This document shows, in pieces, positions 28,123 through 53,746 of a stretch of 64,000 nucleotides of DNA. Made by a program: the position numbers and the translations under genes. This DNA comes from an uncultured Alphaproteobacteria bacterium (GTDB taxonomy: Bacteria > Pseudomonadota > Alphaproteobacteria > RF32 > CAG-239): NCBI GenBank assembly GCA_934277435.1, contig CAKQUE010000001.1:781-64780 (forward strand). The letters are read 5' to 3'. How positions within the stretch are numbered: position 1 is the stretch's first letter; each line of letters opens with the position of its first letter. Below the pieces are notes generated by a model, which saw only the letters and a program-made list of their open reading frames with translations, was not told where the DNA came from and did not search any database.

Positions 28123-28869
28123 TTAATCTTTTAATTGCTTGGTTCCGTATGAAATAACTTTAAATCCGACCGGATTTTTTAATCTTTCTTTGTATTGAAC
28201 TCTTCTTGGTTGATATTGCACCTTCAAACTTGCGCGATAACGAATTGTCCGCGGTTTATATGAAGAAGGCAAATAATAATCAACACTGTATTCAACTTGC
28301 CATGTTCCTTCTTCAATTTCATTCACAGTCAGAATTTTAACCGAACTGGTCAAGCCGTCTTGTTTCATACGCTGCATGAGCTTACGACCAGTGTTTTTTA
28401 AAAAATCCTGATATACAATGGAAGAAGACATTTCTTGCAAATCGCCGCCGTTTTGCCAGCGGGCTTCCATTTCTTCAGTGTCTGCCAATAAAGTAGTACG
28501 CAGCAAAATATATTCACGAATAAATGTTTCAGTAATTGCTTTTTCAGAATCCATATTTCGAGTATACGGAATAATACGGTATACTTGCTCTTCTTTATTG
28601 CTCAAAGTCAATAAATATGGCTCAACACGGTATAAAGGAACAATGTTTGAAATCGTCAAAAGCAAAATCATATTACAGCAAAGGCTGATAGCCGTCACAA
28701 CGGCAAAGGCTCGAGCTGTCCACAAATATCTTTTTTCACTGGCATTTACCACCAAACTATTTTCATTGCGGTTAACTCGGCGCGCTCCGGTACGCATTCC
28801 GGTTCTGACCTGTGAACCTGAATTCAAGAGCTTTTGCTGTGTGCTATTTATACCTAATTGATCAGCCAT
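28123..28869 (-). CDS. virB8: VirB8/TrbF family protein (paralog 2)
   Basis: Bitopic (TM AFAVVTAISLCCNMILLLTI); NTF2-like periplasmic domain with C-terminal …RLKNPVGFKVISY. Confidence 0.75.
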   Translation of the reverse strand: MADQLGINSTQQKLLNSGSQVRTGMRTGARRVNRNENSLVVNASEKRYLWTARAFAVVTAISLCCNMILLLTISNIVPLYRVEPYLLTLSNKEEQVYRIIPYTRNMDSEKAITETFIREYILLRTTLLADTEEMEARWQNGGDLQEMSSSIVYQDFLKNTGRKLMQRMKQDGLTSSVKILTVNEIEEGTWQVEYSVDYYLPSSYKPRTIRYRASLKVQYQPRRVQYKERLKNPVGFKVISYGTKQLKD

Positions 28870-28888: not shown

Positions 28889-29080
28889 CTAAATTGTTTC
28901 CCAAAACCAACTAGGCACATTTTTAATAGTTTCTATCTGCATGCAGGCGCACGGAGAAAGCTTAAGCTCATTAATATCCTTACCTGGTCCGACCGCTTCC
29001 GGTTCATAATATGAACCAAAAAGGCTGCATGCCGACAAAATCAGCAATAATCCCATTATTAATAAAATTTTTTTCGACAT
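28889..29080 (-). CDS. Small lipoprotein, VirB7-like
   Basis: 63 aa; lipobox LILSAC; position between virB8 paralogs and upstream of virB9. Confidence 0.5.
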   Translation of the reverse strand: MSKKILLIMGLLLILSACSLFGSYYEPEAVGPGKDINELKLSPCACMQIETIKNVPSWFWETI

Positions 29081-29226: not shown

Positions 29227-29982
29227 TTATTCACGAATCTCATCTTGGTTATATTTCAAGACCACAAACCCCAAAGGATTTACCAATCTTGTAAACACAG
29301 CGCGGCGTTCGGGAATAAATCGCGGCGTAACAGAGGCTCTCATCTTGGTCTTGGTCAAAACCAGCGAGTTTCCGTTATTCTTTTGTGAAAGAGTATATAC
29401 AGTAAAATTCACAATCCACGCCGGACTACTGTCACTTACCTTATTTAAGCTATCAATACGTACCTCTTTGGAAAAACCTTTTTCAAACATCTTATCTGTA
29501 TCTTTGGCGTTTTTACCAACAAACTCTCTATAAACCTCAGGTGTTGATAAATATGCAACAATTCCGCCTTCACCCCAACGAGTCTTCATCTCTTGTTCAT
29601 CATTTATAACTGAATTACGTATGATAACATATTGTTTTACAAACAATTCTGTCATTTGTTTGATAGACGGCATCTTAGGCGTTATAGGTTCATAGCGCAC
29701 CATCGTTTCAGAATCATTTTGACTGATAATCAAAAGTGGCTCCACGATAATCTCCGGTGATAGTCGAAAAATAACCAGTGAAGCGCTCAAGAACACCCCT
29801 AAAGATAAAACTGCGCAAAAAATAACTAACCTTGACAGCCACCTAAAATAAACCTCTTTAGCTGAACTATTGTTTATTTTATCGTCGGTGACGTATTGCA
29901 GTTTAATATTATTCTGCCCATTTTGCTGCGCGTTAGCGTCTGCAAGCAATTTTTTTTCTATACCATTATCTAATTCTGACAT
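29227..29982 (-). CDS. virB8: VirB8/TrbF family protein (paralog 1)
   Basis: Bitopic; C-terminal …RLVNPLGFVVLKYNQ; paralogous to 28123-28869. Confidence 0.7.
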   Translation of the reverse strand: MSELDNGIEKKLLADANAQQNGQNNIKLQYVTDDKINNSSAKEVYFRWLSRLVIFCAVLSLGVFLSASLVIFRLSPEIIVEPLLIISQNDSETMVRYEPITPKMPSIKQMTELFVKQYVIIRNSVINDEQEMKTRWGEGGIVAYLSTPEVYREFVGKNAKDTDKMFEKGFSKEVRIDSLNKVSDSSPAWIVNFTVYTLSQKNNGNSLVLTKTKMRASVTPRFIPERRAVFTRLVNPLGFVVLKYNQDEIRE

Positions 29983-29998: not shown

Positions 29999-32900
29999 TT
30001 ATGGATAAACCGCACAATATGGAGAATGCATTCTAGCCAATTGTTTATTCAAACTTTTTTGCCCTTCTTGGTCATATACATCTAAAACAGCCGCATCGGC
30101 TTCTGATGTTTTTATTTTTTCTTCCAGTTCAACTAAATCTTCGTCGGCAGAAATCTGAACTTTTTCATCACCGTCTTTTTCCAACACAGCAACACCATGT
30201 AAAAGTCGTTCTTTATTTGTATTCACTATTTCAGCGGTTCCCTTTATATTTCCAATCAGTTCTTTCAAGCGGCGTAAATTACCTGTTTTATGCTCTTCTA
30301 AAGTTTCCGAAGCTTTTTCATAGTCTGCGTCATTCATTAAATCAAAATCTTCGCTCAATGTATAGCCCAATTCTTCAAACATTTTACGCAAATTTTCTTT
30401 TATATCTTCAACCTGCAATTTTTGCTGAGCCACTACTTCAGCTAAAGCTTTTTCATTTTCCCTATTGTCCAGATAATCGCCAAACTGGTTAGCTCCAAAC
30501 ATTGCTCGATTGGCAATATAATAATCCATATTAAATTTAACTTCTCCACCTTTTGCTTTGTTCATATTTGCTGATTTTATCAAAGTTACAACAGCGGCAT
30601 TAAACGCAGGGTTAAATGTGAGTTTTTTAACTTTAAGCACACCTAAATTACCTAGAGAAATTGCATTTTCCTCCACTATTTGTACAATCTGTCCCAACTC
30701 ACTGGCTTCGGCCCAAGATTGTGGGTCGATGGTAGTTTTAGTGCTGAGTATCTGACTTTCAGCAGCCTCAACATCTGTTACGGCAGATTTGCCTTTGATT
30801 TTTTCGGCAGACAAATTCACACAATTCTTACTGTCTGGCAGAGGCTTTGCCAGCAGATATTCATTTTTCAAAGCAGCAACATATTTTCCATCTTCTATTT
30901 TGCATGGATATTGACCTGCTGACCAAAAAACATCGGTACTCTTGTCGCCGGTTAAAAACTCTTCCAGATTAAGCTCTTTTTCCACAAAAGGCCGCGGTTT
31001 CAAAACATTCTGCCAAATTTCCGGAATTTCAAGACCGCTTTCGCTAAAGCTTGGTCCGGCCAAAGTTATATCAGCCACATTTTCCGGAGTGCTATTAACA
31101 CCGCCTTTTTTGTACTTTAAAACAGCGTCGTAGTCATCAGTGTCAAAATGGAAGATTTCGCGCAAAGGAGCTGCTTGTAATGTAGAATTCTTTGGTGCTG
31201 TAAAATCTCTTTCTTTTTCAACAATGCCAACAAAATAATCACTATCGGCTTTTTCCTTATCTTCACTGGCGATTCTAGCAAAAACATCTTGCATTGCATC
31301 AGCAAAAAACAAACTTCCAGTCACACTGCCGGAAACGTCTATTTTCCGTAAATTTGCAAGCAACTCATTGTGTGTTTGCACAACACTTTTGTTGTCTGGC
31401 AAATATATTGAATCACCCATGCTTTTAATATTGTTATAAGCCTCATCTATTTTACTTTGCGCTTGTGTGCTGGCGGCAGTAACAATATTATGTATAGACG
31501 AAAGTATCGGCGTGTTTTCAAATATAAGTTTTATAGCCGCTTTATAAGCAGTCATTTTGCCCTCATAATCAGAAACGGCTTTATCAATGCTTTGCTTATA
31601 TTTATTTTGCGCTGCGCTATAATCTTTGATGTATTTTGCCTGCAACTCTTTGATTTGTTTATCAATATTTTCCAATTCTGCGCGGCTATTATCAATAGAT
31701 TTCTCTAAGCCACTAGTTTTAGCAGACAAAATTGTTCTTTGTTTTAGGGCTTCCGCACGTTTAACTTCACCATCTTTAATAGACGTTGAAAATGTTTTAC
31801 GCATTAAAGAAACTGAGGTACCGCGTTCAAGCTTACTGCCATAGTCAAGCGCATCTTCAGATTTTGGAGTAGAAACCTCTGTATCGCCTATTACATCGTT
31901 ATGAGCATTCAATTCATCTCTTGTATCACTTAGTGTGACACTGTCAGCATCCATCTTTGCATAAACAGATGTTTTATGGTTTTGCAAAGATTTTAAACTT
32001 GCTCTATATGTATTAGTAAGTTTATCCAAGCTTTTTTGTTCTTCTTCCAACAATTTATCAATTTCTTCAGTTGTCGGGCCTGCTTTTATGAGAGAACTTA
32101 ATTTATTTATGCTATTTTTGTTCTCTTGTCTTTGCTGAGCGGCAGTTTTGATTATCTTGCCTTTACCATCAGTAATATCCTTATATTGTTTCTTATCGTT
32201 AAACGAAGTAACATTAGATAACAGAAGTGAAAGTAGGTGCGTTTCATCAACATAGTTTTTCATATTTTCATATTTACCAGAAAGATACGCGTCATAAAAA
32301 TGTTTTTGGTCATTCCAAACATCACGCTTGCCGGTCATTGCGCCAAAATCCGATTTACCATTAATAGCGTCACTATTAATTTTGGCTGAAACTTCAGCAC
32401 CAATAGTCCAATTAACCAACGCGTTTTTTCTGGATTCCGCATACATGTCGTCTTCTGTTGAAGGCTTTTTATAAGTTTTAACATTTTTACCTTTGGAATC
32501 TTTTTGAGAAGCAGCTTCTTCATTTTTATTTATATCATCTACTGAGGCTGCTTGGGTTACACTTTGATCAATTTCTTCCGAAATATAAATAGAATCTTCC
32601 TGATTTCCATCTTGGTCTTTAGATGTTGTTGCTTCATACACATCTTCTTGTTCATTACTTTCTTCAGTCTGAAACTCTTCATACAGTTTCATCAGCCAAG
32701 CCTGTATTCCTTTGTCCGATGATGTTTTATACAAAGTACCGTTTTTAGTTTCTGCGGTTTTGATAGCTGTGGCTTTAACAAATTTTTTCCCGTTCCAAGC
32801 TTCTGAACTATCCTTATAATATCTAGACAAATATCCCATAACACAGCTTTCAGATTCATTTAGATATTGTTTAGCTCGATTATGATGCTTCATCATTTCA

Positions 32901-33967
32901 TGATATGTTTTGAACACTTCTTTATATTTAGGCAATAATTGTTTATAGTTATGAGCAATCACTGCCTGATTCAAATTATCATTTGCATCAGAAATTATTT
33001 CCAAGCTTTCAAATTCAGTCTCTTTTCCTTCTACTGGAGATTGCAAACCGGCGCCTGACAAATCATCAAACAAACTGTCATCTGTAGAAGCCGAAGCAAT
33101 GGTCGTTACTTCATGATATGAGGCAACATTAGTTTTGCTATTCAAATATATTTCAGCCGAACTTCTTTTTTGTTTTCCAGATGCGTTTTCAGCATCATAC
33201 TCCAAAACTTGCGCATTGCCATTTATATTTTTAATTGCATCATATTGAGCATTCATAGCATTTAGAAACAATGTATAGCGCATAATTTTATCATATATTC
33301 TAACTGCGGTTAAAGCGTTACGCCATAAACAAACCTTATCTTCTTTGCCTTCTTTCTGACAATTATATTCTTCCAACCCTTCTTCAGAACAATCTTGACC
33401 GGCAACCAAACATTTTTCGATATTATCCAGCTGTGCCAACATAGTACGCAGTTCTTTATTCATCTCTCGAGCGGTGATATACATCTCCATCGTACTATCC
33501 ATTTTTAACTGGCGCGCATTATCATCATAACGACTTTTTACACCACCATTTTTAGATGGATATTGCAAAAACAATTTGATAAAGGCTTCTTGCACCTTCC
33601 CTTCATCTTCTATTTTATCGGCCGTAGTTTTTAGACTGTCTTCAATTGTTCGCGAATAAGAAACAACTTTTTTACGCTTACTAAGACTTTGACGCAAAGA
33701 GTTAAATTTACTTTTTCCTAAATCAACAGCATATCCTTTTGCCGACTGAGTAACCATGGTCACCAAATTAGTACCATTAAAATTTTGCCGTACCTGCTCA
33801 ACTTGGGCAATTGTGGTGGTTAACGTACTGATTGTGGCTGGAGTACATTGAAAGCACAGCTGAGGAGCCATCGGCAGCAATGGAGTATAATCTGGCCAGA
33901 CCGCAAAAGCAGGGCGATTGACTAATAAGCTGCTAAAAAAAGCTAAAATATAAATAATTTTTTTCAT
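29999..33967 (-). CDS. Giant (~1320 aa) secreted coiled-coil-rich protein of unknown function in the VirB5/VirB6 slot
   Basis: Start placed at MKKIIYILAFFSSLLVNRPAFA (signal peptide) rather than the ORF-track start at 34117; no TM helices; long Lys/Glu-rich coiled-coil segments. Confidence 0.5.
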   Translation of the reverse strand: MKKIIYILAFFSSLLVNRPAFAVWPDYTPLLPMAPQLCFQCTPATISTLTTTIAQVEQVRQNFNGTNLVTMVTQSAKGYAVDLGKSKFNSLRQSLSKRKKVVSYSRTIEDSLKTTADKIEDEGKVQEAFIKLFLQYPSKNGGVKSRYDDNARQLKMDSTMEMYITAREMNKELRTMLAQLDNIEKCLVAGQDCSEEGLEEYNCQKEGKEDKVCLWRNALTAVRIYDKIMRYTLFLNAMNAQYDAIKNINGNAQVLEYDAENASGKQKRSSAEIYLNSKTNVASYHEVTTIASASTDDSLFDDLSGAGLQSPVEGKETEFESLEIISDANDNLNQAVIAHNYKQLLPKYKEVFKTYHEMMKHHNRAKQYLNESESCVMGYLSRYYKDSSEAWNGKKFVKATAIKTAETKNGTLYKTSSDKGIQAWLMKLYEEFQTEESNEQEDVYEATTSKDQDGNQEDSIYISEEIDQSVTQAASVDDINKNEEAASQKDSKGKNVKTYKKPSTEDDMYAESRKNALVNWTIGAEVSAKINSDAINGKSDFGAMTGKRDVWNDQKHFYDAYLSGKYENMKNYVDETHLLSLLLSNVTSFNDKKQYKDITDGKGKIIKTAAQQRQENKNSINKLSSLIKAGPTTEEIDKLLEEEQKSLDKLTNTYRASLKSLQNHKTSVYAKMDADSVTLSDTRDELNAHNDVIGDTEVSTPKSEDALDYGSKLERGTSVSLMRKTFSTSIKDGEVKRAEALKQRTILSAKTSGLEKSIDNSRAELENIDKQIKELQAKYIKDYSAAQNKYKQSIDKAVSDYEGKMTAYKAAIKLIFENTPILSSIHNIVTAASTQAQSKIDEAYNNIKSMGDSIYLPDNKSVVQTHNELLANLRKIDVSGSVTGSLFFADAMQDVFARIASEDKEKADSDYFVGIVEKERDFTAPKNSTLQAAPLREIFHFDTDDYDAVLKYKKGGVNSTPENVADITLAGPSFSESGLEIPEIWQNVLKPRPFVEKELNLEEFLTGDKSTDVFWSAGQYPCKIEDGKYVAALKNEYLLAKPLPDSKNCVNLSAEKIKGKSAVTDVEAAESQILSTKTTIDPQSWAEASELGQIVQIVEENAISLGNLGVLKVKKLTFNPAFNAAVVTLIKSANMNKAKGGEVKFNMDYYIANRAMFGANQFGDYLDNRENEKALAEVVAQQKLQVEDIKENLRKMFEELGYTLSEDFDLMNDADYEKASETLEEHKTGNLRRLKELIGNIKGTAEIVNTNKERLLHGVAVLEKDGDEKVQISADEDLVELEEKIKTSEADAAVLDVYDQEGQKSLNKQLARMHSPYCAVYP

Positions 33968-33983
33968 AGTCCGCTCCTTTACT

Positions 33984-35219
33984 TTAAAAACCCTGCCAAC
34001 CGCTGATAGAGTCTTGTAATTTGTCGTTAACTGTATCTCGCAAACTCTTCTTTTTGTAGATATACTCGTCCAAATTAAACTTAGTGACATCTTGTTTGGT
34101 ATTTTTGAATTTATCATTCCAGCTATTAATCTCGACCATGCTGGTAAATCTCATTTCTGCCAACAATAATTCCAAGTAACGAGCTGCCAATTTGGCATTT
34201 TGCACGTCTGCCCCTATTTTTGCCGCCATACCACCAAGCTGACCATCAACTTTGGTGGTTTGCTCCAAATAAGCCTCAGATTTCTTTTCAAACTCTTCAC
34301 CTTTTACGGCGCCCACAACAAGAACCCTCATTAAATTTTGCAAAGCTTTATAGTATTCTTGTTGACGTTTTGTCCTAACTCGGGCAATACTTTTGGAGCC
34401 GATATATTCATATTTGCCAACAAAAAATTCCGCTATATCTGCGCCATACATATCTTCAAGCTGTTGTTGTTCTTCTTGAGCCTCAATGTCTTCTTCGTCT
34501 TTTTTGCCTGAAAACAGCGAATCTGTAACTTTATCCAGATATTTTTCCGTATTCTTACCAGCAATTGTTTGTTCCAAATCAGATACCTCCTTAGCCGCTG
34601 CCGTGGCATTTTTTTGCAGCTGTTCTGCTTTTTTATCTCGCAGAGCTGTTTGATTTTTCAAATCTTCCCTTTCAGCTTTCAACTCAGCAATTCTCTTCGC
34701 CAATTCTTCAAGTTCTTTCGCATCGCCTTTATCAGCTTTTAACCTTGCCTCCAAAATCATTAATTCTTCATCAATATTTTTTTCTTTTGCGGCGCGTTCT
34801 GTAGCCAAAGCTTTTTTATAATCGTCAAGCATAGATTGCGCCATTGCTGCCGCTAATTGCGTATTGGCAAAATTTCGGGTTGCATTGCTAAAAGAGCTGC
34901 CCAAATCAACTTTTTCACCAGAAACAGCTTGGTTTTTCACATTATCGGAAAAATCAACAACCATACCTTCCATTTGTTTTTGTAAAATATTAAACAGAAT
35001 TCCGCCTTCTGCTCCACCGGCTTTTATAGCTTTGTCGTGTAAATGTTTCAAGGAATTGCTATATCGATTTTCCCATTTTTCTTGTTCTTTTTGAACAGAC
35101 TTACCAAAATTTTCAGCTTGGGTAAAAAAGTCCAATTTAGAAATAGCATAAGCATTTGAACAAGTCAGAAAACAACTTGCTAAAACCAGAGTAAGGATTT
35201 TTAATGACATATTCTTCAT
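33984..35219 (-). CDS. Secreted coiled-coil protein (411 aa), possible VirB5-like minor pilus component
   Basis: Signal peptide MKNMSLKILTLVLASCFLTCSNAYA; strongly helical K/E/A-rich. Confidence 0.4.
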   Translation of the reverse strand: MKNMSLKILTLVLASCFLTCSNAYAISKLDFFTQAENFGKSVQKEQEKWENRYSNSLKHLHDKAIKAGGAEGGILFNILQKQMEGMVVDFSDNVKNQAVSGEKVDLGSSFSNATRNFANTQLAAAMAQSMLDDYKKALATERAAKEKNIDEELMILEARLKADKGDAKELEELAKRIAELKAEREDLKNQTALRDKKAEQLQKNATAAAKEVSDLEQTIAGKNTEKYLDKVTDSLFSGKKDEEDIEAQEEQQQLEDMYGADIAEFFVGKYEYIGSKSIARVRTKRQQEYYKALQNLMRVLVVGAVKGEEFEKKSEAYLEQTTKVDGQLGGMAAKIGADVQNAKLAARYLELLLAEMRFTSMVEINSWNDKFKNTKQDVTKFNLDEYIYKKKSLRDTVNDKLQDSISGWQGF

Positions 35220-35233
35220 GGTGTTTCCTTTCT

Positions 35234-36934
35234 CTAATTATTTCCACTGTTCGGCCAAGTAGAAGTTTTTGAAGATGCCCCTGAGGAATTATTTCCCCAG
35301 AGTGAGAAATTCCAATTTGGTGAACTTTTGGTGTTTTTCTCATCACCTTTTGGCGCAAATGGAGGGGTAACTTGCGAATCGTCTGTTTCCTCTTGACTTG
35401 TATCACTTTCTTTGTTGGCTGGTTTTGGCTGATTTTCATGTGTCAACGGATATTCAAAATCAGAACCATCTTTTGTATCAGAGCCAGTATCAGTATCTGT
35501 ATCGGCAGAGCCTTCTGTTTTTTCATTATCTTTATTTTTATCTTCTGTTTTTACCGTGTTTTTCACATCATTATAGGCGTTCTCAGCCCCTTTCGCTGCT
35601 GCCTTCCAGTCTCCTTTGCCAACATTATAAATAATACTGTCTGAAGAGTTTGCACCTTTTTGCACACCGGACATTATATTTTTCGTTTTGTCATCCATAT
35701 AGCTTCCGCCAACACTGGTCGCTCCAGATGCCAAATTGCCGATTGCAGCGCCATAATTGCCACTTTGTACATTATTCGCAGCATTTTTACCCGCATTATA
35801 GGTCGAACCAGCGTTACCAATATAATCACCGGCCTTATCTAAGCCATAATCTCCGGCAATATCACCGGCTTCACCCAAAGCCCCGCCGTAATCACCGCTT
35901 TTAACGTCATTTATGGTTCTTTTACCTTTATCATAAGTACTGCCGGCTTTACCAATATAATCACCGGCCTTATCCAAGCCATAATCTCCGGCAATATCAC
36001 CGGCTTCACCCAAGGCACCGCCGTAGTCACCATTTTTAACCTTGCCATAGATATCCTTGCCTTTATTAAACATTTCTTTACCTTTATTTGGGTCTATCAG
36101 CAAGTCTGCACCGTTTCCGTTTTGTAAACCATTAGCCAGATTCAAAGAACTTGCTTGTTCTTTTTTAGCGGCTTCCTCTGCAGCTTGCTCGTCTTTATCC
36201 GCTCTACTAATAGACACGCCCAAATATTCAATAGATGCTTTTTGACCGTAGTAATTAGCGGTAAAGTCCAAAATAGAGCGCCAACGGGCGTTAGCTCGGT
36301 CAACGGTTTGAGTATACGACTTAGTTAAAATCGGTATAAGTCCCTCACATCTTCCGCTATCACTTTCGCTTCCGCCTTCTGTGCTGCCGCTGCACTCTTC
36401 AATTAGTTCTTTCAGCTGCTTTTCTTCTTCATCAAGTTGTTCGGTTTCATTGATGATGGAGCGACGGGTTACTAAAGCCTTTGCATATAGTATTGACACA
36501 TTCTGCACTTGCAATTTGTTTAACTTTTCGCGGCGTTCTCTGGCTTTTTGAGCATCATTATTGACTTGATTATTTCGAGACATCTCATTATTGACGGCAT
36601 TAGCTAATTCTGGAGTAGCAAAACTTCCTTTAACTTTTCCGGAAATTCCTTTTAAGACTTTAGAACGGATTATCATTTGCGGAGCATATTTAACAGCCGA
36701 ACCGATTGCCAATTTTTGACCAGCCTTTTTCAAACTCTTTAGTTTATTAGGACTGTTGGTCAATTGCTGCATATCAAGCTCTTTACCCGTATAATTCTTG
36801 ATAATGGTGTTTATTTGCTCCTGATAAGTAGTCAGTTGATCTTGAATAAAAGTGGTCGGATCAAAGTCTGCAAAAGAAGCATAAGGAAACAGAGCTATAA
36901 TAGCACTGCAAACTACAGTTATTTTTATTCTCAT
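35234..36934 (-). CDS. Secreted protein (566 aa) with internal 45-aa tandem repeat (GDYGGALGEAGDIAGDYGLDKAGDYIG…) and S/T/D/N-rich tail
   Basis: Signal peptide; repeated block seen at protein and DNA level. Confidence 0.45.
   Translation of the reverse strand: MRIKITVVCSAIIALFPYASFADFDPTTFIQDQLTTYQEQINTIIKNYTGKELDMQQLTNSPNKLKSLKKAGQKLAIGSAVKYAPQMIIRSKVLKGISGKVKGSFATPELANAVNNEMSRNNQVNNDAQKARERREKLNKLQVQNVSILYAKALVTRRSIINETEQLDEEEKQLKELIEECSGSTEGGSESDSGRCEGLIPILTKSYTQTVDRANARWRSILDFTANYYGQKASIEYLGVSISRADKDEQAAEEAAKKEQASSLNLANGLQNGNGADLLIDPNKGKEMFNKGKDIYGKVKNGDYGGALGEAGDIAGDYGLDKAGDYIGKAGSTYDKGKRTINDVKSGDYGGALGEAGDIAGDYGLDKAGDYIGNAGSTYNAGKNAANNVQSGNYGAAIGNLASGATSVGGSYMDDKTKNIMSGVQKGANSSDSIIYNVGKGDWKAAAKGAENAYNDVKNTVKTEDKNKDNEKTEGSADTDTDTGSDTKDGSDFEYPLTHENQPKPANKESDTSQEETDDSQVTPPFAPKGDEKNTKSSPNWNFSLWGNNSSGASSKTSTWPNSGNN
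35816..36030. repeat. Intragenic tandem repeat, 135-bp period, two copies with ~80-bp near-identical cores
   Basis: accaatataatcaccggccttatc[t/c]aagccataatctccggcaatatcaccggcttcacccaa… occurs at 35816 and 35951. Confidence 0.7.
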
Positions 36935-36973
36935 TTTCCTTCTCCTCGTCTTAGACTTTTAAGTCACAATTAC

Positions 36974-38356
36974 TTAATTGTTTGCTTTCTTCTTTTGACC
37001 TGTGATTACCACCTCATCCATACACCCAGTGCATTTTCCTTCTTTGCAGGCAAAAGTTTTACTTCCATCTTTGTATTTGCCGTCTGGACAAGCAACTTGC
37101 TTTGAGCCATCGGAACATACCGCGCCACTTGTTGATGCACTAAGCAGCTTATAACCACTTACCTCTTTTAGATTATCATCATAACAAGCAAGTTCCTCTT
37201 CTTCTGCACCATTAGGATCTTCATCGGCATCTAAATCCAAATTAGGTTCGCTGTCATCTTGTGGATTATCCGGTGTAACAACGATTTCTTCTACACAAGA
37301 TGTACATGTTCCGCCTTTGCACGCAATAAACGTTCTCTCGCCACTTTGATAAATACCGTCCTGACATGCTGATTCTTGATTGCCATCGGAGCATACAACA
37401 TTTCCAGACGCAGAATTTTTTGGAGTTATACCGCTAATCTTTTTTAAGCTTTCATCTGAACATAATTCTTCTGAACTTTGGCTATCTGATGTTTCGTCGT
37501 CAGTAATTGTTGATGAGGTATTGATTTCTGATGAAGATATTGTTTTATCCCCGCTTGCTGCATTGCCAGCAACCGTTGTACCAGCTGTTCCCTCTTCTGC
37601 AGTTCCTTCATCATCATTTCCGGCAGCCAAAGCCGATAACTCAATATCCTTAATACCAGATATAGCTTCATATTTTAATCTTTCAGCATAAAGGTCACGC
37701 ATTGTATTCATAACATCAGTTGAAATACTTATGGTATTGGCAATACCGACATTATCTTCGTGCTCGGTTTTGGTTTGACTGACTGCTTTTCCGGTAGAGT
37801 TTTGAATTTCTTCATAATTAGCAATGGCCGCACCTTTGGCAACCGCTTGCGACATCATAGCTTTTAGCTCTTCCGCCCGAATTTCATCCCAGTCATTTAA
37901 TCCCTCTTGGCGAATTAATGAATCTTTATTTTTTATTTTTTTTACCATCTTATTAATGCAATCATAAAGCTTTTCCGTATCTTTAACCATATCAATAGCG
38001 TTAGTTTTGCAAAAAATAGCCATAGTGTTAGGAATAACCTGACGTCCATTGACCAAACCGCTATAATTAACATCTATCTTTTCTTTTTTGGGTTTATTCC
38101 CATTGCCGGTGCCACCGGTAGCGGAACTAGATGCAGAAGTAGATGATGTTGACGAAGGAGTTGACGTCACCGGCTTAGGTTCAGAGCTAGATTCTGTTGT
38201 TGTAGTTGTAATTGTTGCCAAATCAGTTGTAGTGGTTTCTGTCGTGGTAGAAGTTCCGTTTTCAGTAGTGCTATCTGCGGCTTTAGCGTATTCAGCCATT
38301 CCGATAAGCAAAGAAGCAACGGTGGCAATTTTTAGAAATTTATTAAATGTTATCAT
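36974..38356 (-). CDS. Secreted Thr/Ser-rich protein with two C-terminal Cys-rich ~45-aa modules
   Basis: Signal peptide; poly-T/S linker; duplicated module C-SDG…AC-DG-Y–G–TF-CK-G-CT-C—E-VVT. Confidence 0.45.
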   Translation of the reverse strand: MITFNKFLKIATVASLLIGMAEYAKAADSTTENGTSTTTETTTTDLATITTTTTESSSEPKPVTSTPSSTSSTSASSSATGGTGNGNKPKKEKIDVNYSGLVNGRQVIPNTMAIFCKTNAIDMVKDTEKLYDCINKMVKKIKNKDSLIRQEGLNDWDEIRAEELKAMMSQAVAKGAAIANYEEIQNSTGKAVSQTKTEHEDNVGIANTISISTDVMNTMRDLYAERLKYEAISGIKDIELSALAAGNDDEGTAEEGTAGTTVAGNAASGDKTISSSEINTSSTITDDETSDSQSSEELCSDESLKKISGITPKNSASGNVVCSDGNQESACQDGIYQSGERTFIACKGGTCTSCVEEIVVTPDNPQDDSEPNLDLDADEDPNGAEEEELACYDDNLKEVSGYKLLSASTSGAVCSDGSKQVACPDGKYKDGSKTFACKEGKCTGCMDEVVITGQKKKANN

Positions 38357-38378
38357 CTTTTTGCTCCTTCACTATTTT

Positions 38379-39164
38379 TTATTTTTCTTCTGTATCTGTT
38401 TTAGCACCATCGCTTTCTGCTTTTTCTTCGGCTTTTTTCTTTTCTTCGGCTTGCTTTTGTGCTTCAGCACGCTTTTCTTCTTCAGCCTTTTGCTGGTCAT
38501 GTTCATCTTTCATACCTTGATAAACTTTCATACCAGATTTACCGGCGGAATCATAGAGATTTTTGCCCACTGTGGTAATAGAGCCGCCGCTTTTAATTGC
38601 GTCAGCCCCGCCAAACGCTGCGTCTGACGTGCTGCGCCCATATTTTTTCACCCAGCTGTAAGCCTGACTCCATTTACTTTTTTTAGCCTTTTCATTATTT
38701 GCTTTTTGAGCTGCATCAGCTTGTTTTTGCGCTTCTGCATTATCTTTAGCTGTCTCTTCGGCTGCTTTTGCTGCTGTTTCTTGATTTTTTTCTTTTACTT
38801 TAGCTTCTTCTTCTTTTTTCTTTTTTGTAGCGTCAGCACCGTCTTCCAAAACCTGTTTGGAATCGGCGTACATTTTGCCATATCTATCATAATCGCCACG
38901 TTCTATTTTGCCAAACAATTCGCCGGCAGCAGCAGCATAACCACCGTTTTGGATTTGTCTGATAATATTCAGATTGCTTTGGACTTCTATTTGTACTTGT
39001 TTTGCTATTTGTGATGCTTGTTTAGCAGAATCGCCCAAACGTTTCCAGTCCACTGTCGGTAGCGGATAAGCCATGCAAACGGAAGACCACATATAAATTA
39101 AAAGGCTTGCCAAGGTGCAAACAACAATATTTACTCTAAAAACTTTCATAACGTCCTCCGTCAA
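38379..39164 (-). CDS. Secreted Lys/Glu/Ala-rich low-complexity protein (261 aa), VirB5-position
   Basis: Signal peptide then helical low-complexity; immediately downstream of virB4. Confidence 0.4.
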   Translation of the reverse strand: MTEDVMKVFRVNIVVCTLASLLIYMWSSVCMAYPLPTVDWKRLGDSAKQASQIAKQVQIEVQSNLNIIRQIQNGGYAAAAGELFGKIERGDYDRYGKMYADSKQVLEDGADATKKKKEEEAKVKEKNQETAAKAAEETAKDNAEAQKQADAAQKANNEKAKKSKWSQAYSWVKKYGRSTSDAAFGGADAIKSGGSITTVGKNLYDSAGKSGMKVYQGMKDEHDQQKAEEEKRAEAQKQAEEKKKAEEKAESDGAKTDTEEK

Positions 39165-39232: not shown

Positions 39233-41662
39233 CTAGGCAATATTTAAATATTTTGTAACAAATCCATCTTCCCCATATTCTTGAATGAGTTGTTGAACCA
39301 ACAAAACATTTTTTCTTCCTGAATTGTAAATACGCAAATATTTGCCTAATCCACCTAAATTTACATCCAAAATAACCGATTCACCAGTTACTGGGCGTGA
39401 TAATAATATGGCGTACGGAAAATCGCGGTAACTTTTACCAAAAATAAAATCAAGTTCGCTTTGAGTCAAATTCCAGTTGGCGTAGTCTTCTATCTGTGCT
39501 TGCGGGTTGCGGAAAAAGATAACCGTTTGACATTGACCGCGAATAACCTCGCCGACACCTAACTTATCAACAATATTCGGTTGTTGGAAGGCGCAGAGAT
39601 AGGCTTGACGTTTTTTACGTCCCTCTTGCAAACCAATTATAAAGTAATCACGGAACATTGGGTGTTTTAACATTGGCGCCGTTTCATCAATCATAATCAA
39701 TGACGGCACACCGGTTTCACCAGTTTCAGATTGAATACGATGCATAATATAGCTGATTACCGCCGGCGCAAGGTTTTCATCTTCAAAAATATGTGTAAAG
39801 TCAAACGCCATAAAACGACGGCTCTTCAAATCCAAACTATCGTCTTGCCCATTGAAAATAGCACCATACTGATCCGGATTTACCCAACGGTATAATTCAC
39901 GACGCATATTTCCGGTTGGTGAAAAACAACTCTTATACAAGTTTTTCAACAAACGTTCTTCCGGCCGCAAATAGTCAAATGCCGTGGTAATAGCGCGTGC
40001 AACTTCTCTTTCGGCCAACGCATCGTCAACCATGGTGATAGCTTTCAACCAACGACGCAAAAATGCTCGGTTTTCAGGAGTATTTGCGCAGTCAAACGGA
40101 TTAAGCGATACATTTTTTTCATCACCGTCGAAACCTACATAAGCACCTTTAACAGCGCGGGTAAAAATTTGAGCACCCAAGTGTCTATCAAAGAAGAAAA
40201 CTCGCAAATCACCATGCCGCATAGCTTGTCCGGCTAAAAATGTGAGCAATGTGGTTTTACCTTGACCAGTAGGACCGATAATGCAACAGTGCGCCACGGC
40301 AGACTCTTCGCTGGACACATGGAATTGAAAACGATACGCTGAACCCGACATAGTTCTAAACACAGTAATAGCGCCATTTCCCCAGTCACTTTTGCTAAAT
40401 CCTTCCGCCGGTTTATCCATAGTTGTCGCCATAGCGATAACTCTTGACAAGTAGCGATACGTTCTTGGATAGGTGTCGTATGTTGGAAATTGCGTAAAGA
40501 ACACAGCTTGATTAACCCAGCCTTCTCGAACAGGTGTCACACCAAACGCGCGACAGATACGTTGTACTTCAGATTCCCCAAAATTTATCTCTTCTTTTGA
40601 TTCGCCTTTGATAATCACTGTAAACGCATATTCACACAGCGATTGATAGTTATTATCACTATCATCAATAGCAGCTAAAGCTTCGCTGTATTGGTCCGAA
40701 ACATTTTCTGAAAAGCTGGTAACACGCGACATTCTTTGTTGCTGCATCAAAAGCATACGCCCTTCCGAACGGAAAAGCGGACGGATATTTTGCAATATTA
40801 CTAGCTCGCAATCAATAGCATTCAGCGAATAAATCATACTTTCATCCATAGCTTCGCCGCTGGAACGAATACCCATAGCAATTTCATAGAGATTTTTTTC
40901 GCCGGAAAAGAAATGAATTATACCTTCCTCTTTGGTAAAATGAATATGGTCGGCAGTCAGCATCTCGCACAATCTAGCGCCTTCAACATCTCTAACCTTT
41001 GGCTCTGGTTTAGAAATAGGGCTGCATAGCCGCGAAAACAAATAAAACGGGCTATCCTCTGCCTTACTTTCAGGAGTTTCATACATTGGTCTGACACCGT
41101 ATTCACTTAAAGTAGAAAGCAAACTTTGAGAAGCGTAGTTCAAATCTTTTAAAGCGTCCTTACGGTCAATAACCGACAGAATTATATAGTGCTTGTTGCT
41201 ATACACCCTATCCATATTTTGGAACCAAATTTGCGAAATTGTGTCAAGCAGCTGGTTATTGAAATCTCTTTTTTCTTTTTCCAATGAAATTCTTTCACGC
41301 GTTGTGATAACTCGGCAGACAATTTGCATATTAGCCATATCATCAATCCACGATTTGCGAGCCTCCATCATGGAATATACTTTTTCTCCAGTGGCGGCAG
41401 ACAAATCCATACCCTCAAGTTTGAAAACACGGGCAAAAGAATTATTACTGCACTGGATAGTAACGCCATCAGACATCAGTTTGGTAAACGGTAAAAAATC
41501 TGAAACGCGAGATTCCCTTGGCTGCGGCAAAACCATTCGACCGAATCTGGTTGAAAGCAAAACCGCAAACGACGCCGCCGAAGCAATACCAATCAAAGCC
41601 ACAATTACTTGTAAGCTGTTTAATCCTTCGACAAATATACTCATAAAATCATAGTTATTCAT
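39233..41662 (-). CDS. virB4: T4SS ATPase VirB4/TrbE/CagE
   Basis: 809 aa; Walker A GPTGQGKTTLLTFL; VirB4 length and position after virB3. Confidence 0.85.
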   Translation of the reverse strand: MNNYDFMSIFVEGLNSLQVIVALIGIASAASFAVLLSTRFGRMVLPQPRESRVSDFLPFTKLMSDGVTIQCSNNSFARVFKLEGMDLSAATGEKVYSMMEARKSWIDDMANMQIVCRVITTRERISLEKEKRDFNNQLLDTISQIWFQNMDRVYSNKHYIILSVIDRKDALKDLNYASQSLLSTLSEYGVRPMYETPESKAEDSPFYLFSRLCSPISKPEPKVRDVEGARLCEMLTADHIHFTKEEGIIHFFSGEKNLYEIAMGIRSSGEAMDESMIYSLNAIDCELVILQNIRPLFRSEGRMLLMQQQRMSRVTSFSENVSDQYSEALAAIDDSDNNYQSLCEYAFTVIIKGESKEEINFGESEVQRICRAFGVTPVREGWVNQAVFFTQFPTYDTYPRTYRYLSRVIAMATTMDKPAEGFSKSDWGNGAITVFRTMSGSAYRFQFHVSSEESAVAHCCIIGPTGQGKTTLLTFLAGQAMRHGDLRVFFFDRHLGAQIFTRAVKGAYVGFDGDEKNVSLNPFDCANTPENRAFLRRWLKAITMVDDALAEREVARAITTAFDYLRPEERLLKNLYKSCFSPTGNMRRELYRWVNPDQYGAIFNGQDDSLDLKSRRFMAFDFTHIFEDENLAPAVISYIMHRIQSETGETGVPSLIMIDETAPMLKHPMFRDYFIIGLQEGRKKRQAYLCAFQQPNIVDKLGVGEVIRGQCQTVIFFRNPQAQIEDYANWNLTQSELDFIFGKSYRDFPYAILLSRPVTGESVILDVNLGGLGKYLRIYNSGRKNVLLVQQLIQEYGEDGFVTKYLNIA

Positions 41663-41949
41663 GGCTCAAACTTGTTTCCTTGCACTGCGTATAAATTATG
41701 GCTTATTTTATTACTTTGTCCATAGGCTTGAAGCATGGTTGACAAATGTGGCTCTTTAAAACCAGCCACAACCAGAGCTGCATGTGCGACAATTATACTG
41801 AAAATAAAATACAAAGGGTTTAATCCAGATATTCCAACTCCCATAAACAACATCGGAAACTGAATACCCAAATTAATCATTGACGGCACCATAGGGGCAA
41901 ACAAAAATTTGGGCGGCTGAGCCACAGCTTTTAAAATTTCTTCCCGCAT
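41659..41949 (-). CDS. virB3: VirB3/TrbD-like small inner-membrane protein
   Basis: 96 aa, two hydrophobic segments, 4-nt overlap with virB4. Confidence 0.6.
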   Translation of the reverse strand: MREEILKAVAQPPKFLFAPMVPSMINLGIQFPMLFMGVGISGLNPLYFIFSIIVAHAALVVAGFKEPHLSTMLQAYGQSNKISHNLYAVQGNKFEP

Positions 41950-42391: not shown

Positions 42392-42778
42392 TTAAGGTTT
42401 ATTTCCACTTTTCGGTACACTATTTGATTGAGCGTCTCCTGGTGGAGTTGCATTTCCTCCCACGCCGTTTGTCACCACTCCCGCGTCACCACTAACGCGC
42501 AAATAATCATGAATAGCCCCTTTCAACAGTAACGTGATAATAAAAGTACTCATCATGATATAAGCCAAAGTTTTCCAGCTAACTTTATTAAAAATGGCAG
42601 CAACAGAAAACGCCAATAGTCCCAAACCGGCTACCATATAGCCAAATTTGGCCAGACCGGTTCCCATTGCATCACCAAGATCTTTTAGTCTATCAAAAAC
42701 ATCGGCATGCGCCTCTGGTATGGACGCAAAAAGCAAAACAAGAACCATAAAAAAGAGAATATTGTATTTTTTAATCAT
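42392..42778 (-). CDS. virB2: VirB2/TrbC pilin paralog 3
   Basis: Long signal peptide, two hydrophobic helices, conserved …F(N/G)K(V/F)xWKxxA… shared by the three paralogs. Confidence 0.6.
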   Translation of the reverse strand: MIKKYNILFFMVLVLLFASIPEAHADVFDRLKDLGDAMGTGLAKFGYMVAGLGLLAFSVAAIFNKVSWKTLAYIMMSTFIITLLLKGAIHDYLRVSGDAGVVTNGVGGNATPPGDAQSNSVPKSGNKP

Positions 42779-42788
42779 TACTTATCTC

Positions 42789-43151
42789 CTATTTGACACC
42801 AATTAAATCGGCACTTAGCTCATTAGCGCCAATCAAACTTGTGGCGGCCCAAGACATTACAAAAACGCCGATAGAAATAGCGGCAAACCATTTCCAATTG
42901 AAGCTACCGAACATACCAGCAATACAACAGCAGGCGATACCAATTGTTGCCGCAGGAGCTATAATCTTATACAATCCGGCAAAAATACTTTTACCGGCAT
43001 TATTTAAGGCATCAAAAGTTTCAGCTGACGCAGCAAATGCGCATAAGAATACTGAAAGGAACAAACCGATAGTATACTTATTGCTATCTAAAAATTTCAA
43101 CATTCTTATAAACATTTCATCCCTCCAAAATTTTATATTTATTTTTCCCAA
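42789..43151 (-). CDS. virB2: VirB2/TrbC pilin paralog 2
   Basis: As above (…FGSFNWKWFAAISIGVFVMSWA…). Confidence 0.6.
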   Translation of the reverse strand: MGKINIKFWRDEMFIRMLKFLDSNKYTIGLFLSVFLCAFAASAETFDALNNAGKSIFAGLYKIIAPAATIGIACCCIAGMFGSFNWKWFAAISIGVFVMSWAATSLIGANELSADLIGVK

Positions 43152-43184: not shown

Positions 43185-43538
43185 TTAGATACCAGTATTA
43201 TTACCAAGGGTATCCTCAAATTGGTTACCAACTGCATTATTGGTATTTGCAGCATAGTTAACAATAGCACCAGCGGCGGCCACAACAGCCAAACCAAAAG
43301 CCAAAGCAGCAAACCACGGCCATTTTACTTTACCAAAAATAGCTTGGAACGCCAAGGCCACCAAACCAAAACCACCAATCATAAAAATAACAAGTTTTGC
43401 GTTTGTAAACAAGTTGGCCATTTTTTTGATGGCCGTACCAAACACAGAATCAGCGGCAGAGGCATCTCCGAGCATAACAACTGTAAACAATAATGACATT
43501 GTTACAATGCTCAAAATATTTGATTTTAAAAATTTCAT
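43185..43538 (-). CDS. virB2: VirB2/TrbC pilin paralog 1 (first gene of the vir operon)
   Basis: 117 aa; …FGKVKWPWFAALAFGLAVVAAAGAIV…. Confidence 0.65.
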   Translation of the reverse strand: MKFLKSNILSIVTMSLLFTVVMLGDASAADSVFGTAIKKMANLFTNAKLVIFMIGGFGLVALAFQAIFGKVKWPWFAALAFGLAVVAAAGAIVNYAANTNNAVGNQFEDTLGNNTGI

Positions 43539-43848: not shown

Positions 43849-45513
43849 GTGCGGATTCCTGCATTTAAGGGTAATGAAATGCCAAATTTTGGTTGGAAAT
43901 GTTTTATTGGTAGCTTTCTTTTTTCTTTAGCGGCGGTGTTTGCCTCCACTAAAGTTTATCTTTTATTGCCTATTGAGCACCAAAATCCTGTAGAGAAAAC
44001 AGCTTTCGAGGACATTGAAACCAAAAATATAGACTTATTTGCAGACAATGAAGAATCCAATCCGATTGTTGAAAAGTTCAATGAAATAAATAATAAACAG
44101 GCTAAAATAGCTGCTATTCAAGATATTGCTCCGACTACTGACACCCCAAAAAGCGTGCAATCTGATGTTTCTGTGGCAGATAAAGAGGATAAGCCCATTG
44201 AAATATCTTCACTTTCTTCAGATGTACTTTATGCTCCAGATGAAGATATGTCGGAAATTTCTGTCACTGATGCTGATAATTCAGCAAATAAAGATATTGA
44301 CGAAGCGCCAGAAATTTCTGAAAATCAAGAAACAAATCCTGTAAATAGTAACTCTTTTGAGCAAGCAATCTTGGTGGACGATACTGAAGATGAAAGCTTG
44401 CAAATTGCCGACGCCTCCGAAGCCAGACCATTTACTATACCTTTATTGCATAATTTTCAGGTTGCTGCGCAAAAAGTAGAAGTTTCTAATGAAGCTGCAA
44501 ACAGTCAAGTCGCTTTAGCCTCAAACAATGTTTTAATTCAAAATATCGGCACCGAAAACAAAATAGCTGCCGCCAGCGGAGAACCAAATAACTTAGTTCC
44601 AGACACAGCTGAGAACGATTCCGACCCTTGGGAAGTGGCAGCAGTGGGAAACTCTCATATAACAAAAAATAAAATCGATAGTTTCACAGGCGATGGAAAT
44701 AAAACTATGGAGGCTTTAGACCAAGATAAGCTTGCTGAGGCTAAATCGCCTAACGAAAAACAAGTTGCGTATAAAATGGTTAAAAACATTTTAATCCCAA
44801 TTCCAGAGGACATCGCTAATGATGAAAATTTGACGCCGCAGCTTTCTTATTCGGAAGAAAATAAAAAACTAAGCGAAAAATTACAAAAAGAAGGCATCTT
44901 AAATCCACCAACACCAATAAAGGAAGAAATAAAAAACAAAGAAGAAACGACCACAACTCCTGTGCCTTTGACTAACAATCAAAGTGAAAATAAACTATCT
45001 GAACCGAGCCTCACTGATAGTATTGCAGCTTGGTTTTCTTCCAATCCTTCGTCAGATAATAATTCTACAAACAATAAGGCGGATAAAGATAAAGATAAAG
45101 ATAAAAATAAAAAAGAAGAAAGCAGCAGTTCTACTTTTAGCAAACTTTTGGGACTAGGAGCCAAAAAAGACAATAATATTGCTCCCTCAGAACTGAAACT
45201 AGCTTTTCAGCCCGACCGCGCAGAGATTTCTGGACAGACGCTTGATTGGTTAAAAGCTTTTTCTCTGAACGCTGTTAACAATGAAAACGTGTTTGTAGAA
45301 ATACGCATTGACGGTTCAAGCTCTTTTGAGCTACAACAAAAACGTTTGAACCTTCTATATTCAATCTTAGTAAATAATGGTGTTGATTATAATAAAATTA
45401 ACATAATTTTTACGGATAGAGAGCCAAACTCTTTTATTATTAGAAATGTTAGATATGCCAGCGAAGATGATGCTATCAATGTTCATAAAAAGGCTTACAA
45501 TCCATGGTATTAA
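43849..45513 (+). CDS. Acidic bitopic/secreted protein (554 aa), first gene of pilus operon
   Basis: N-terminal hydrophobic segment FIGSFLFSLAAVFA; long acidic region with KDKDKDKDKNK stretch; C-terminal β-rich domain. Confidence 0.4.
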   Translation: MRIPAFKGNEMPNFGWKCFIGSFLFSLAAVFASTKVYLLLPIEHQNPVEKTAFEDIETKNIDLFADNEESNPIVEKFNEINNKQAKIAAIQDIAPTTDTPKSVQSDVSVADKEDKPIEISSLSSDVLYAPDEDMSEISVTDADNSANKDIDEAPEISENQETNPVNSNSFEQAILVDDTEDESLQIADASEARPFTIPLLHNFQVAAQKVEVSNEAANSQVALASNNVLIQNIGTENKIAAASGEPNNLVPDTAENDSDPWEVAAVGNSHITKNKIDSFTGDGNKTMEALDQDKLAEAKSPNEKQVAYKMVKNILIPIPEDIANDENLTPQLSYSEENKKLSEKLQKEGILNPPTPIKEEIKNKEETTTTPVPLTNNQSENKLSEPSLTDSIAAWFSSNPSSDNNSTNNKADKDKDKDKNKKEESSSSTFSKLLGLGAKKDNNIAPSELKLAFQPDRAEISGQTLDWLKAFSLNAVNNENVFVEIRIDGSSSFELQQKRLNLLYSILVNNGVDYNKINIIFTDREPNSFIIRNVRYASEDDAINVHKKAYNPWY

Positions 45514-45559
45514 CTTCTGCTTGCTATTTTAATTTCAACCTGTATTATAGGAAAATACG

Positions 45560-47972: not shown

Positions 47973-47991
47973 CAATTAAAGGAGAAAATCC

Positions 47992-50833: not shown

Positions 50834-50835
50834 AA

Positions 50836-52605: not shown

Positions 52606-52614
52606 GAGTGAAAA

Positions 52615-53733: not shown

Positions 53734-53746
53734 AAAGGATAGAGTT

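Follow-up and report, generated by a model that had tools for sequence, protein, structure and literature searches.

Orphan protein families fill the VirB5/VirB6 slot of a type IV secretion operon in uncultured gut Alphaproteobacteria

How is the channel of a type IV secretion system (T4SS) built when no VirB6 can be recognized? In known VirB-type (type IVa) T4SSs, the central stalk, which lets substrates or pilins through, is made of VirB6 and VirB5. The question is raised by a 64-kb stretch of DNA from an uncultured alphaproteobacterium (contig CAKQUE010000001.1, positions 781 to 64,780; hereafter the window, meaning the whole stretch that was analyzed). Its minus strand carries a VirB-type operon with the gene order virB2 (three copies)-virB3-virB4-[A-E]-virB8-virB7-virB8-virB9-virB10-virB11, in which five genes, A to E, fill the VirB5/VirB6 slot between virB4 and virB8. 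What is new here is a T4SS in which four or five orphan families occupy this slot, including a protein of ~1300 amino acids (aa) without a fold match in the PDB; a full-text search of the literature found no paper on this T4SS. Our favored reading, to which we assign a probability of about 50%, is that A-E, exported by Sec and specific to this lineage, serve as structural or adhesive subunits in the distal part of the T4SS and descend in part from VirB5. We infer their location, their assembly into the machine and their function as adhesin or stalk from the evidence below.

The block, its genes and their distinguishable parts are the following (coordinates are those of the window; ORF, open reading frame; nt, nucleotides; pLDDT and pTM, the local and global confidence scores of AlphaFold2, AF2):

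29999-39164, minus strand: five-gene block A-E, between virB4 and virB8
38379-39164, minus strand: gene A, 261 aa, first gene after virB4; TTG start, with an ATG 5 codons in
36974-38356, minus strand: gene B, an ORF of 460 aa
37625-38065, minus strand: B-core domain, B residues ~98-244, with two invariant Cys
36989-37462, minus strand: pair of Cys-rich ~65-aa repeats, each with 7 Cys, at the C-terminal end of B, read from the translation
35234-36934, minus strand: gene C, an ORF of 566 aa
35749-36018, minus strand: tandem repeat in C, two units of 135 nt (45 aa), found by repeat search at 79% identity
33984-35219, minus strand: gene D, an ORF of 411 aa
29999-33967, minus strand: gene E, 1322 aa, start at MKKIIY
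33188-33967, minus strand: N-terminal module of E (E-N), residues 1 to ~260, 59-62% identical in close species
30302-32470, minus strand: confidently modeled part of E, residues ~500-1222, AF2 pLDDT 80-95 (from residue ~480 on), pTM 0.63

The original prediction for this block was of five secreted, non-membrane proteins of helical and low-complexity content, one of them of about 1320 aa, and in these respects it was borne out. Five consecutive minus-strand ORFs lie at these positions, and each starts with an N-terminal hydrophobic stretch followed by an AxA-type cleavage site (A CMA/Y, B AKA/A, C SFA/D, D AYA/I, E AFA/V; a rule-of-thumb reading of the translations). In a Kyte-Doolittle scan (19 residues, threshold 1.6) no hydrophobic segment was found in A-E beyond the N-terminal one; the signal segment of B lies just under the threshold of 1.6 and has a typical n/h/c region. 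Mature A carries 'LPTVD' at its N-terminus, followed by a helical region and a tail rich in K, E and A; in B, a T/S-rich linker precedes a ~140-aa helical core and the two Cys-rich repeats; C has a ~230-aa N-terminal helical module, a Gly/Asp/Tyr-rich 45-aa tandem repeat and an S/T/D/K-rich tail. D is all-helical, its conserved portion being the C-terminal ~170 aa. E comprises the ~260-aa N-terminal module with conserved Cys, a variable acidic linker, a large helical region and a beta-rich domain. Many of the Cys of E are invariant or near-invariant, which together with the invariant Cys of the B-core suggests extracytoplasmic folding. AF2 models were made for D and E (E residues 23-1222). The model of D is all-helical, with a mean pLDDT of 49.9 (27-sequence alignment), too uncertain for a fold search. 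That of E is mostly helical, with helices of 64, 98 and 30 residues, and places the beta-rich domain at residues ~1029-1118. The longest ORF of E reaches 34117 (1372 aa); the orthologues use the 1322-aa start (P0001, 1322 aa, 99% identity).

The block is not a peculiarity of one genome. A VirB4 scan of one genome per GTDB species found relatives in 228 species, all of them metagenome-assembled genomes (MAGs) of uncultured Alphaproteobacteria, including 'Candidatus Scatocola', from human, ruminant, horse, rabbit and chicken gut; the MAG labels of some are evidently wrong bin names. The best 80 of the 228 species have 75-98% VirB4 identity. The slot was compared, by clustering and iterated profile searches, in the 55 loci that span both virB4 and virB8. 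In 55/55 it holds 4-6 proteins with a signal peptide as the only hydrophobic segment, and the gene order is constant. D, E, the B-core and the N-terminal module of C occur in all 55, and the slot invariably ends with D (~390-620 aa) and E (~1200-1650 aa). The module of C occurs across all related loci as proteins of ~220-290 aa. The B-core, likewise present in all related loci, is 62-64% conserved in close species. The tails behave differently: only in the sub-clade of the window do A, B and C carry their low-complexity and repeat tails, and the Cys-rich repeats of B, a clade-specific variable tail, are partly conserved only in loci L004 and L010.

Boundaries between neighboring proteins have shifted during evolution. 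In most species the slot has four genes, the first of which encodes an A-like N-terminus with the B-core at the C-terminus; A and B of the window are therefore the split of one ancestral protein, or the proteins of the four-gene loci are a fusion. In seven species (loci L061, L067, L068, L071, L073, L075 and L076) the N-terminus of E is a separate secreted protein of ~220-260 aa. Fusion of A with B and fission of E-N from E, each between neighbors, suggest physical partnership. The original prediction had left room for a set of effectors. This is disfavored, since a set and order conserved in 55 species, with fusions and fissions between neighbors, are typical of interacting machine subunits and not of variable cargo. 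Hypervariability of D within populations was also considered and rejected: the D clusters that share ~83% identity with the window, more than 100 in all, differ little among themselves (95-99.8% identity) and thus represent one common lineage.

No VirB6 was found to share the slot. The prediction that none of the five proteins has the 5-7 transmembrane (TM) helices of VirB6 held in a TM scan of the window and 80 related loci. No family match to VirB6/TrbL, VirD4 or a relaxase was found anywhere in the 64-kb window, and A-E have no Pfam match to TrbL (PF04610). As a positive control, the TrbL model found a 348-aa protein of a Paracaedimonas plasmid at 29 bits. In the relatives, where the search covered 10 kb on either side of virB4, none of the 80 loci has a polytopic ORF with at least four TM segments on the operon strand, besides extended VirB2 pilins. 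The latter are the apparent VirB6 candidates upstream of virB3 in distant loci: these 4-TM ORFs proved to be VirB2c pilins with long extensions. Decorated pilins of the VirB2c type occur in more distant species (plus strand of L039:8332-9585, L049:8159-9625, L055:7117-9507 and L075:8164-9615); their extensions are Gly/Ser/Asn-rich and include Cys-bearing segments, and the total ORF is ~370-1020 aa. A second candidate, a 278-aa ORF at 13273-14109 on the plus strand of the window, was rejected as a stray VirB6. It sits between rnpA and a Bax1-I family gene, beyond the operon and on the opposite strand, shows roughly five hydrophobic stretches with CxxC...CxxC at the C-terminus, and has no Pfam match. 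Separately, the N-terminus of VirB4 (residues ~9-38) is strongly hydrophobic, although a separate VirB3 is present; it might contribute to an inner-membrane channel in a VirB6-less system.

The search for relatives of A-E outside the clade gave little. Pfam and NCBIfam scans of A-E returned sub-threshold coiled-coil noise only, as did member-by-member Pfam scans of the ortholog sets of D, E-N, the first gene (A or A-B) and C. Hidden Markov model searches of PDB sequences with D, E-N, the B-core, the D C-terminus and C found only designed coiled coils, alpha-repeat proteins and the like, with no match to VirB5, TraC, TrwJ or CagL. A word-index search with E gave 37 matches, all unnamed or 'hypothetical', and an exhaustive phmmer search over 1.84 billion representatives gave 243 clusters (50% identity), nearly all of 1200-1850 aa. 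Judged by its sequence, E is one self-contained family of giant proteins, without annotation anywhere. Its model had no Foldseek match at E<=1e-3; the weak best matches, with poor TM-scores, were dynein stalks, ClyA-type pore formers (AhlB, SmhB, MakA and YaxA) and Tc toxins/TcdA.

The toxins among these matches bear on a different explanation of the block. Coupling-protein-independent T4SSs such as Ptl export periplasmic substrates encoded beside the machine genes. A-E could be such a cargo, exported to the periplasm, assembled there into a conserved toxin or host-interaction factor of several subunits, and expelled by a T4SS that lacks VirD4. The Sec signal peptides on all five proteins would fit such a two-step route, as would the lack of VirD4 and relaxase genes in the window, where the operon ends at virB11, and the presence of AhlB, SmhB, MakA, YaxA and TcdA among the weak top matches of E. 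No toxin or enzyme domain was detected in A-E by Pfam, NCBIfam, PDB profile or fold searches, and E has no significant structural match to the ClyA-type alpha-pore-forming toxin fold. We consider a cargo role of this kind unlikely.

Some of the five proteins show weak links to VirB5. The closest VirB4 proteins in PLSDB are those of Microvirga sp. VF16 pMVF16-3, Sphingosinicella sp. BN140058 p1 and the Erythrobacter aureus YH-07 plasmid (34-39% identity; ordinary VirB4 is at ~25%), and the VirB5 proteins of these three plasmids served as the target for hhalign, signal peptides removed (effective number of sequences, Neff, 2.2); a tblastn search intended to enlarge this profile found 2 records only. 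A alone among the five is a small Sec-type protein directly after virB4, as VirB5 is. The first-gene proteins keep P35 and D38 almost without exception (a 'PTxD' at the start of the mature chain), with a Gly-containing motif ~40 residues later, a pattern that matches the IPVID/IPTID...IGQVG of the Microvirga, Sphingosinicella and Erythrobacter VirB5s. The hhalign signals are weak. Residues 244-358 of D align to residues 107-220 of the plasmid VirB5 at 74.5% probability (E 2.7e-5), the B-core aligns to the C-terminal half of VirB5 at 40% (E 3e-4; 0.2% when reversed) and the mature N-terminus of A to that of VirB5 at 25% (E 7.5e-4; 0.2% when reversed); C and E-N stay below 1%, and the reversed-sequence controls at 2% or less. 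Because the profile holds three sequences, these links are leads and not proof. The Pfam model of VirB5 (PF07996), which found the Erythrobacter VirB5 at 30.3 bits as a positive control, has no match in A-E and does not appear in the list of the 25 families with most matches for any ortholog set. The VirB5 kinship implied by the original prediction thus stands for the weak signals in A (PTxD), the D C-terminus and the B-core, and fails at the level of a Pfam match.

Five recent VirB5 duplicates, as in the Trw system of Bartonella, might serve antigenic or host-range variation, and the original prediction had drawn this analogy. The three virB2 and two virB8 paralogues do show duplication in the operon, and the weak VirB5-like signals in A, B and D also speak for such an array. 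The proteins do not, however, resemble one another. Apparent paralogy of C with D, C with E-N and E-N with D (hhalign 91-96%) fell to 14.6% or less after trimming of the signal peptides. An apparent link of A to D (97%) arose because A sequences had entered the iterated profile of D; clean alignments give 3.6%. The N-terminus of A and the B-core against D, C and E-N, likewise trimmed, give 12.6% or less. With scores that collapse on trimming or with clean profiles, there is no evidence that A-E are mutual paralogues. Moreover, the families are ancient, each single-copy across 55 species, their sizes range from 261 to 1322 aa, and none matches VirB5 in Pfam. Amplification of the Trw type did not hold up, and we regard it as very improbable.

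The rates of evolution set A-E apart from the core of the machine. Between the window and the nearest other species, identity is 92-95% for VirB4, ~83% for VirB3, 72-80% for VirB8a and 35-50% for A-E. Nonsynonymous (dN) and synonymous (dS) divergence was estimated by the method of Nei and Gojobori between the window and three strain-level relatives recovered by exact-protein look-ups, with the following dN/dS:

A: 0.30 / 0.16
B: 0.18 / 0.09
C: 0.16 / 0.11
D: 0.16 / 0.12 / 0.18
E: 0.12 / 0.11 / 0.15
VirB4: 0.014 / 0.010
VirB8b: at most 0.008
VirB8a: 0.03-0.05
VirB9: 0.04-0.06
VirB2c (pilin paralogue): 0.48 / 0.14

The values of 0.09-0.30 for A-E indicate purifying selection and hence functional genes; with synteny in 55 species, they show that the genes are real. 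In dN, A-E (0.06-0.16) are near VirB2c (0.04-0.15), and the core is lower (VirB4 0.008-0.009, VirB8b 0.002-0.003, VirB9 0.02-0.03). A-E evolve at about the rate of the exposed pilin and 10-20 times that of the ATPase VirB4. High variability of the block had been proposed beforehand as a sign of an adhesin or effector role, and variability was found. None of the 50-codon sliding windows has dN/dS >1; the maximum is 0.65, in one window of E, and all others are <0.6. Within E, dN is highest at residues ~1000-1075, in and beside the beta-rich domain. The difference between sister species, 95% identity for VirB4 and 35-50% for A-E, points to strong lineage-specific adaptation at this interface.

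The block is framed by the other genes of the operon:

43185-43538, 42789-43151 and 42392-42778, minus strand: three virB2/TrbC paralogues, TrbC Pfam 26-35 bits
41951-42379, minus strand: small secreted protein of 142 aa, after virB2c in the clade of the window
41659-41949, minus strand: virB3
39233-41662, minus strand: virB4, 809 aa, Pfam CagE_TrbE_VirB; upstream boundary of the slot
29227-29982, minus strand: virB8 paralogue a, Pfam VirB8 at 51 bits; downstream boundary of the slot
28889-29080, minus strand: VirB7-like lipoprotein, 63 aa, with an LILSAC lipobox and an 'SPCAC' motif, between the two virB8 genes
28123-28869, minus strand: virB8 paralogue b
26375-28105, minus strand: virB9 with a C-terminal SPOR domain
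22562-26365, minus strand: beta-flower-repeat protein, 1267 aa, with an N-terminal TM anchor
18342-22562, minus strand: VirB10, 1406 aa, with beta-flower repeats and a TrbI domain
17358-18332, minus strand: virB11, the last gene of the operon

The gaps between the genes A-E are 14-39 nt, so the five form one operon with virB4 and virB8. The three virB2 paralogues are those that had been predicted. The 63-aa lipoprotein, 95-100% identical in strain-level relatives, is likely the VirB7 equivalent, to go by its motifs. VirB10 seems to be split or doubled. The 1267-aa protein combines beta-flower/RHS-like repeats with an N-terminal TM anchor like that of VirB10; the 1406-aa protein has a signal-peptide-like N-terminus, further beta-flower repeats and a TrbI/VirB10 domain at residues 1101-1302. 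The two genes overlap by 1 nt, an arrangement that resembles in spirit the giant repeat-bearing CagY. The flanks of the locus are housekeeping genes (rnpA, yidC and engB on one side; uvrA, queH and others further out), which place the T4SS locus on the chromosome.

An expanded machine of this kind might also house A-E as a periplasmic scaffold comparable to Cag3, CagM and CagT. The five proteins would then enlarge the core complex together with the giant VirB10, unexposed, and their fast evolution would reflect weak constraint. The size of the machine is in keeping with this (the 1406-aa VirB10, the 1267-aa beta-flower protein, the duplicated VirB8 and the VirB9 with SPOR), and helical and low-complexity proteins tolerate substitutions, with no 50-codon window reaching dN/dS >1. 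However, the dN of A-E matches that of the pilin paralogue and is well above that of VirB8, VirB9 and the beta-flower protein. T/S-rich linkers and Cys- or Gly-rich repeat tails would be more typical of surface proteins, and no match exists in the PDB sequence set, where deposited Cag structures should be represented. A buried scaffold therefore has, in our estimate, a low probability.

Next to the virB2 genes, and divergent from them, the window carries a type IVb pilus operon of the R64 thin-pilus type (43849-54295, plus strand). It encodes a 554-aa protein, a TcpQ-like protein, a secretin, PilO (PF06864), a 535-aa protein, a T2SSE ATPase, a T2SSF platform protein and a 217-aa protein. Wherever a secretin was detected among the related loci, 58 in number, the pilus operon and virB2 are likewise adjacent and divergently oriented. 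Just past the pilus operon, on the opposite strand (54501-55466, minus strand), is a third T2SSE-family ATPase, a PilT- or VirB11-like protein of 321 aa. Elsewhere in the window is a direct repeat of 300 nt (1154-1453 and 2409-2708, 97% identical, 1255 nt apart). It corresponds to a 147-aa ORF that is present twice (1156-1599 and 2411-2854, minus strand) and looks like a recent local duplication.

How, then, might the slot work? Under our favored reading, A-E would share a transcript with virB4 and virB8 and leave the cytoplasm by Sec, and several would probably become disulfide-bonded. They would assemble on the VirB7/8/9/10 scaffold as a periplasm-spanning, surface-exposed distal part (stalk, pilus base or tip, or adhesin), taking the role that VirB5 on top of VirB6 has in canonical systems. 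By position, A together with B would correspond to VirB5 in diverged form, and D might be another VirB5-like protein; C and E, the giant helical protein, would be new families. The conserved cores are predicted to dock to the machine, and the variable tails (the T/S linker, the Cys-rich and Gly-rich repeats and the beta-rich domain of E) to face outward, where they would diverge quickly.

Machine subunits are favored over variable effectors because the set and order are constant and the position is that of VirB5/VirB6 inside a machine operon. The fusions and fissions of neighbors, the conserved Cys, the combination of a conserved docking-type core with a fast tail and the pilin-like rates argue in the same direction. 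Several points weigh against this reading. VirB6 and VirD4 may sit elsewhere in the genome, the view being of 64 kb here and of 10 kb on either side of virB4 in the relatives. Conserved synteny would also fit a conserved secreted complex of the Ptl kind. All VirB5 links are under the usual 90-95% confidence and come from a profile of 3 sequences with an Neff of 2.2, PF07996 was found neither in A-E nor among the top families of the ortholog sets, and the model of D is of low confidence (pLDDT 49.9).

More tentatively, the locus may represent an undescribed T4SS architecture, a possibility that we put forward with reserve. It would be fixed throughout an order-level clade of the mammalian and avian gut, in which the VirB6/VirB5 stalk is replaced by soluble, helical proteins exported by Sec, namely E (a giant with a new fold), D, C and a split VirB5 (A+B), the system is VirD4-less, VirB10 is a giant split beta-flower protein and an R64-type pilus is always adjacent. 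The whole might act as a contact or adhesion device towards host or neighboring cells. A T4SS without a recognizable VirB6 in the examined regions, in at least 228 species-level gut genomes (human, ruminant and poultry), poses anew the question of how the channel is built, and it singles out A-E as probably the face that this poorly known gut lineage presents to its host or neighbors.

Comparison with known systems brings out what is shared and what is particular. Like the VirB5/TrbJ/TraC family (PF07996), A-E have a Sec signal peptide, are helical and follow virB4, and A shares P-[TV]-x-D; unlike that family, they reach sizes of up to 1322 aa and do not match PF07996. The Trw system of Bartonella has amplified trwL and trwJ-I-H and no coupling protein, and its tandem copies of VirB5, VirB6 and VirB7 are recognizable. 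The window resembles it in having no VirD4 in the locus, multiple virB2 paralogues and fast-diverging exported components; it differs in that A-E are mutually unrelated at the profile level and VirB6 is absent from the examined regions. The Cag system of Helicobacter pylori (CagL/CagI/CagH, Cag3/CagM) is likewise an expanded T4SS with a giant repeat-bearing VirB10 and several lineage-specific Sec-dependent orphans. Its VirB5 equivalent is recognizable only weakly or structurally, and it has kept both a coupling protein and CagW, a homologue of VirB6. The two systems differ in gene order, and A-E have no sequence similarity to PDB chains, which should include those of Cag. The rvh system of Rickettsiales is also an alphaproteobacterial chromosomal T4SS with duplicated components and with 4-5 large genes directly after virB3-virB4. 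These large proteins are polytopic VirB6 paralogues, whereas A-E have no TM segments beyond the signal peptide.

The nearest systems are those of the three plasmids with the closest VirB4. They are conjugative-type T4SSs with a MobA/MobL relaxase and VirD4, unlike the window, and have one virB2, one virB8, a VirB10 of normal size, two slot proteins and no E-like giant; their slot proteins have no BLAST similarity to A-E. Like the window, the Microvirga and Erythrobacter systems have a small VirB7-like lipoprotein with 'SPCAC', and the plasmid gene order is virB2-B3-B4-[secreted helical proteins]-B7-B8-B9-B10-B11. Between virB4 and virB8 they encode a VirB5 of ~250 aa and a soluble helical protein of 420-450 aa (L082:19348-20709 in Erythrobacter, L089:12415-13683 in Sphingosinicella, L081:19932-21218 in Microvirga). 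The latter aligns to its own VirB5 at 90% in hhalign, with the signal peptide included in the VirB5 profile. No polytopic gene lies between virB4 and virB8 in the Erythrobacter and Sphingosinicella plasmids; the Microvirga slot has an extra 228-aa ORF with three hydrophobic segments, and no slot protein of the three plasmids matches TrbL/VirB6 in Pfam. The Paracaedimonas plasmid, at 30% VirB4 identity, keeps a classical TrbL/VirB6. Since the nearest plasmids share VirB6-poor slots filled with helical proteins, a slot of this kind is ancestral to this branch of T4SSs and predates the gut clade.

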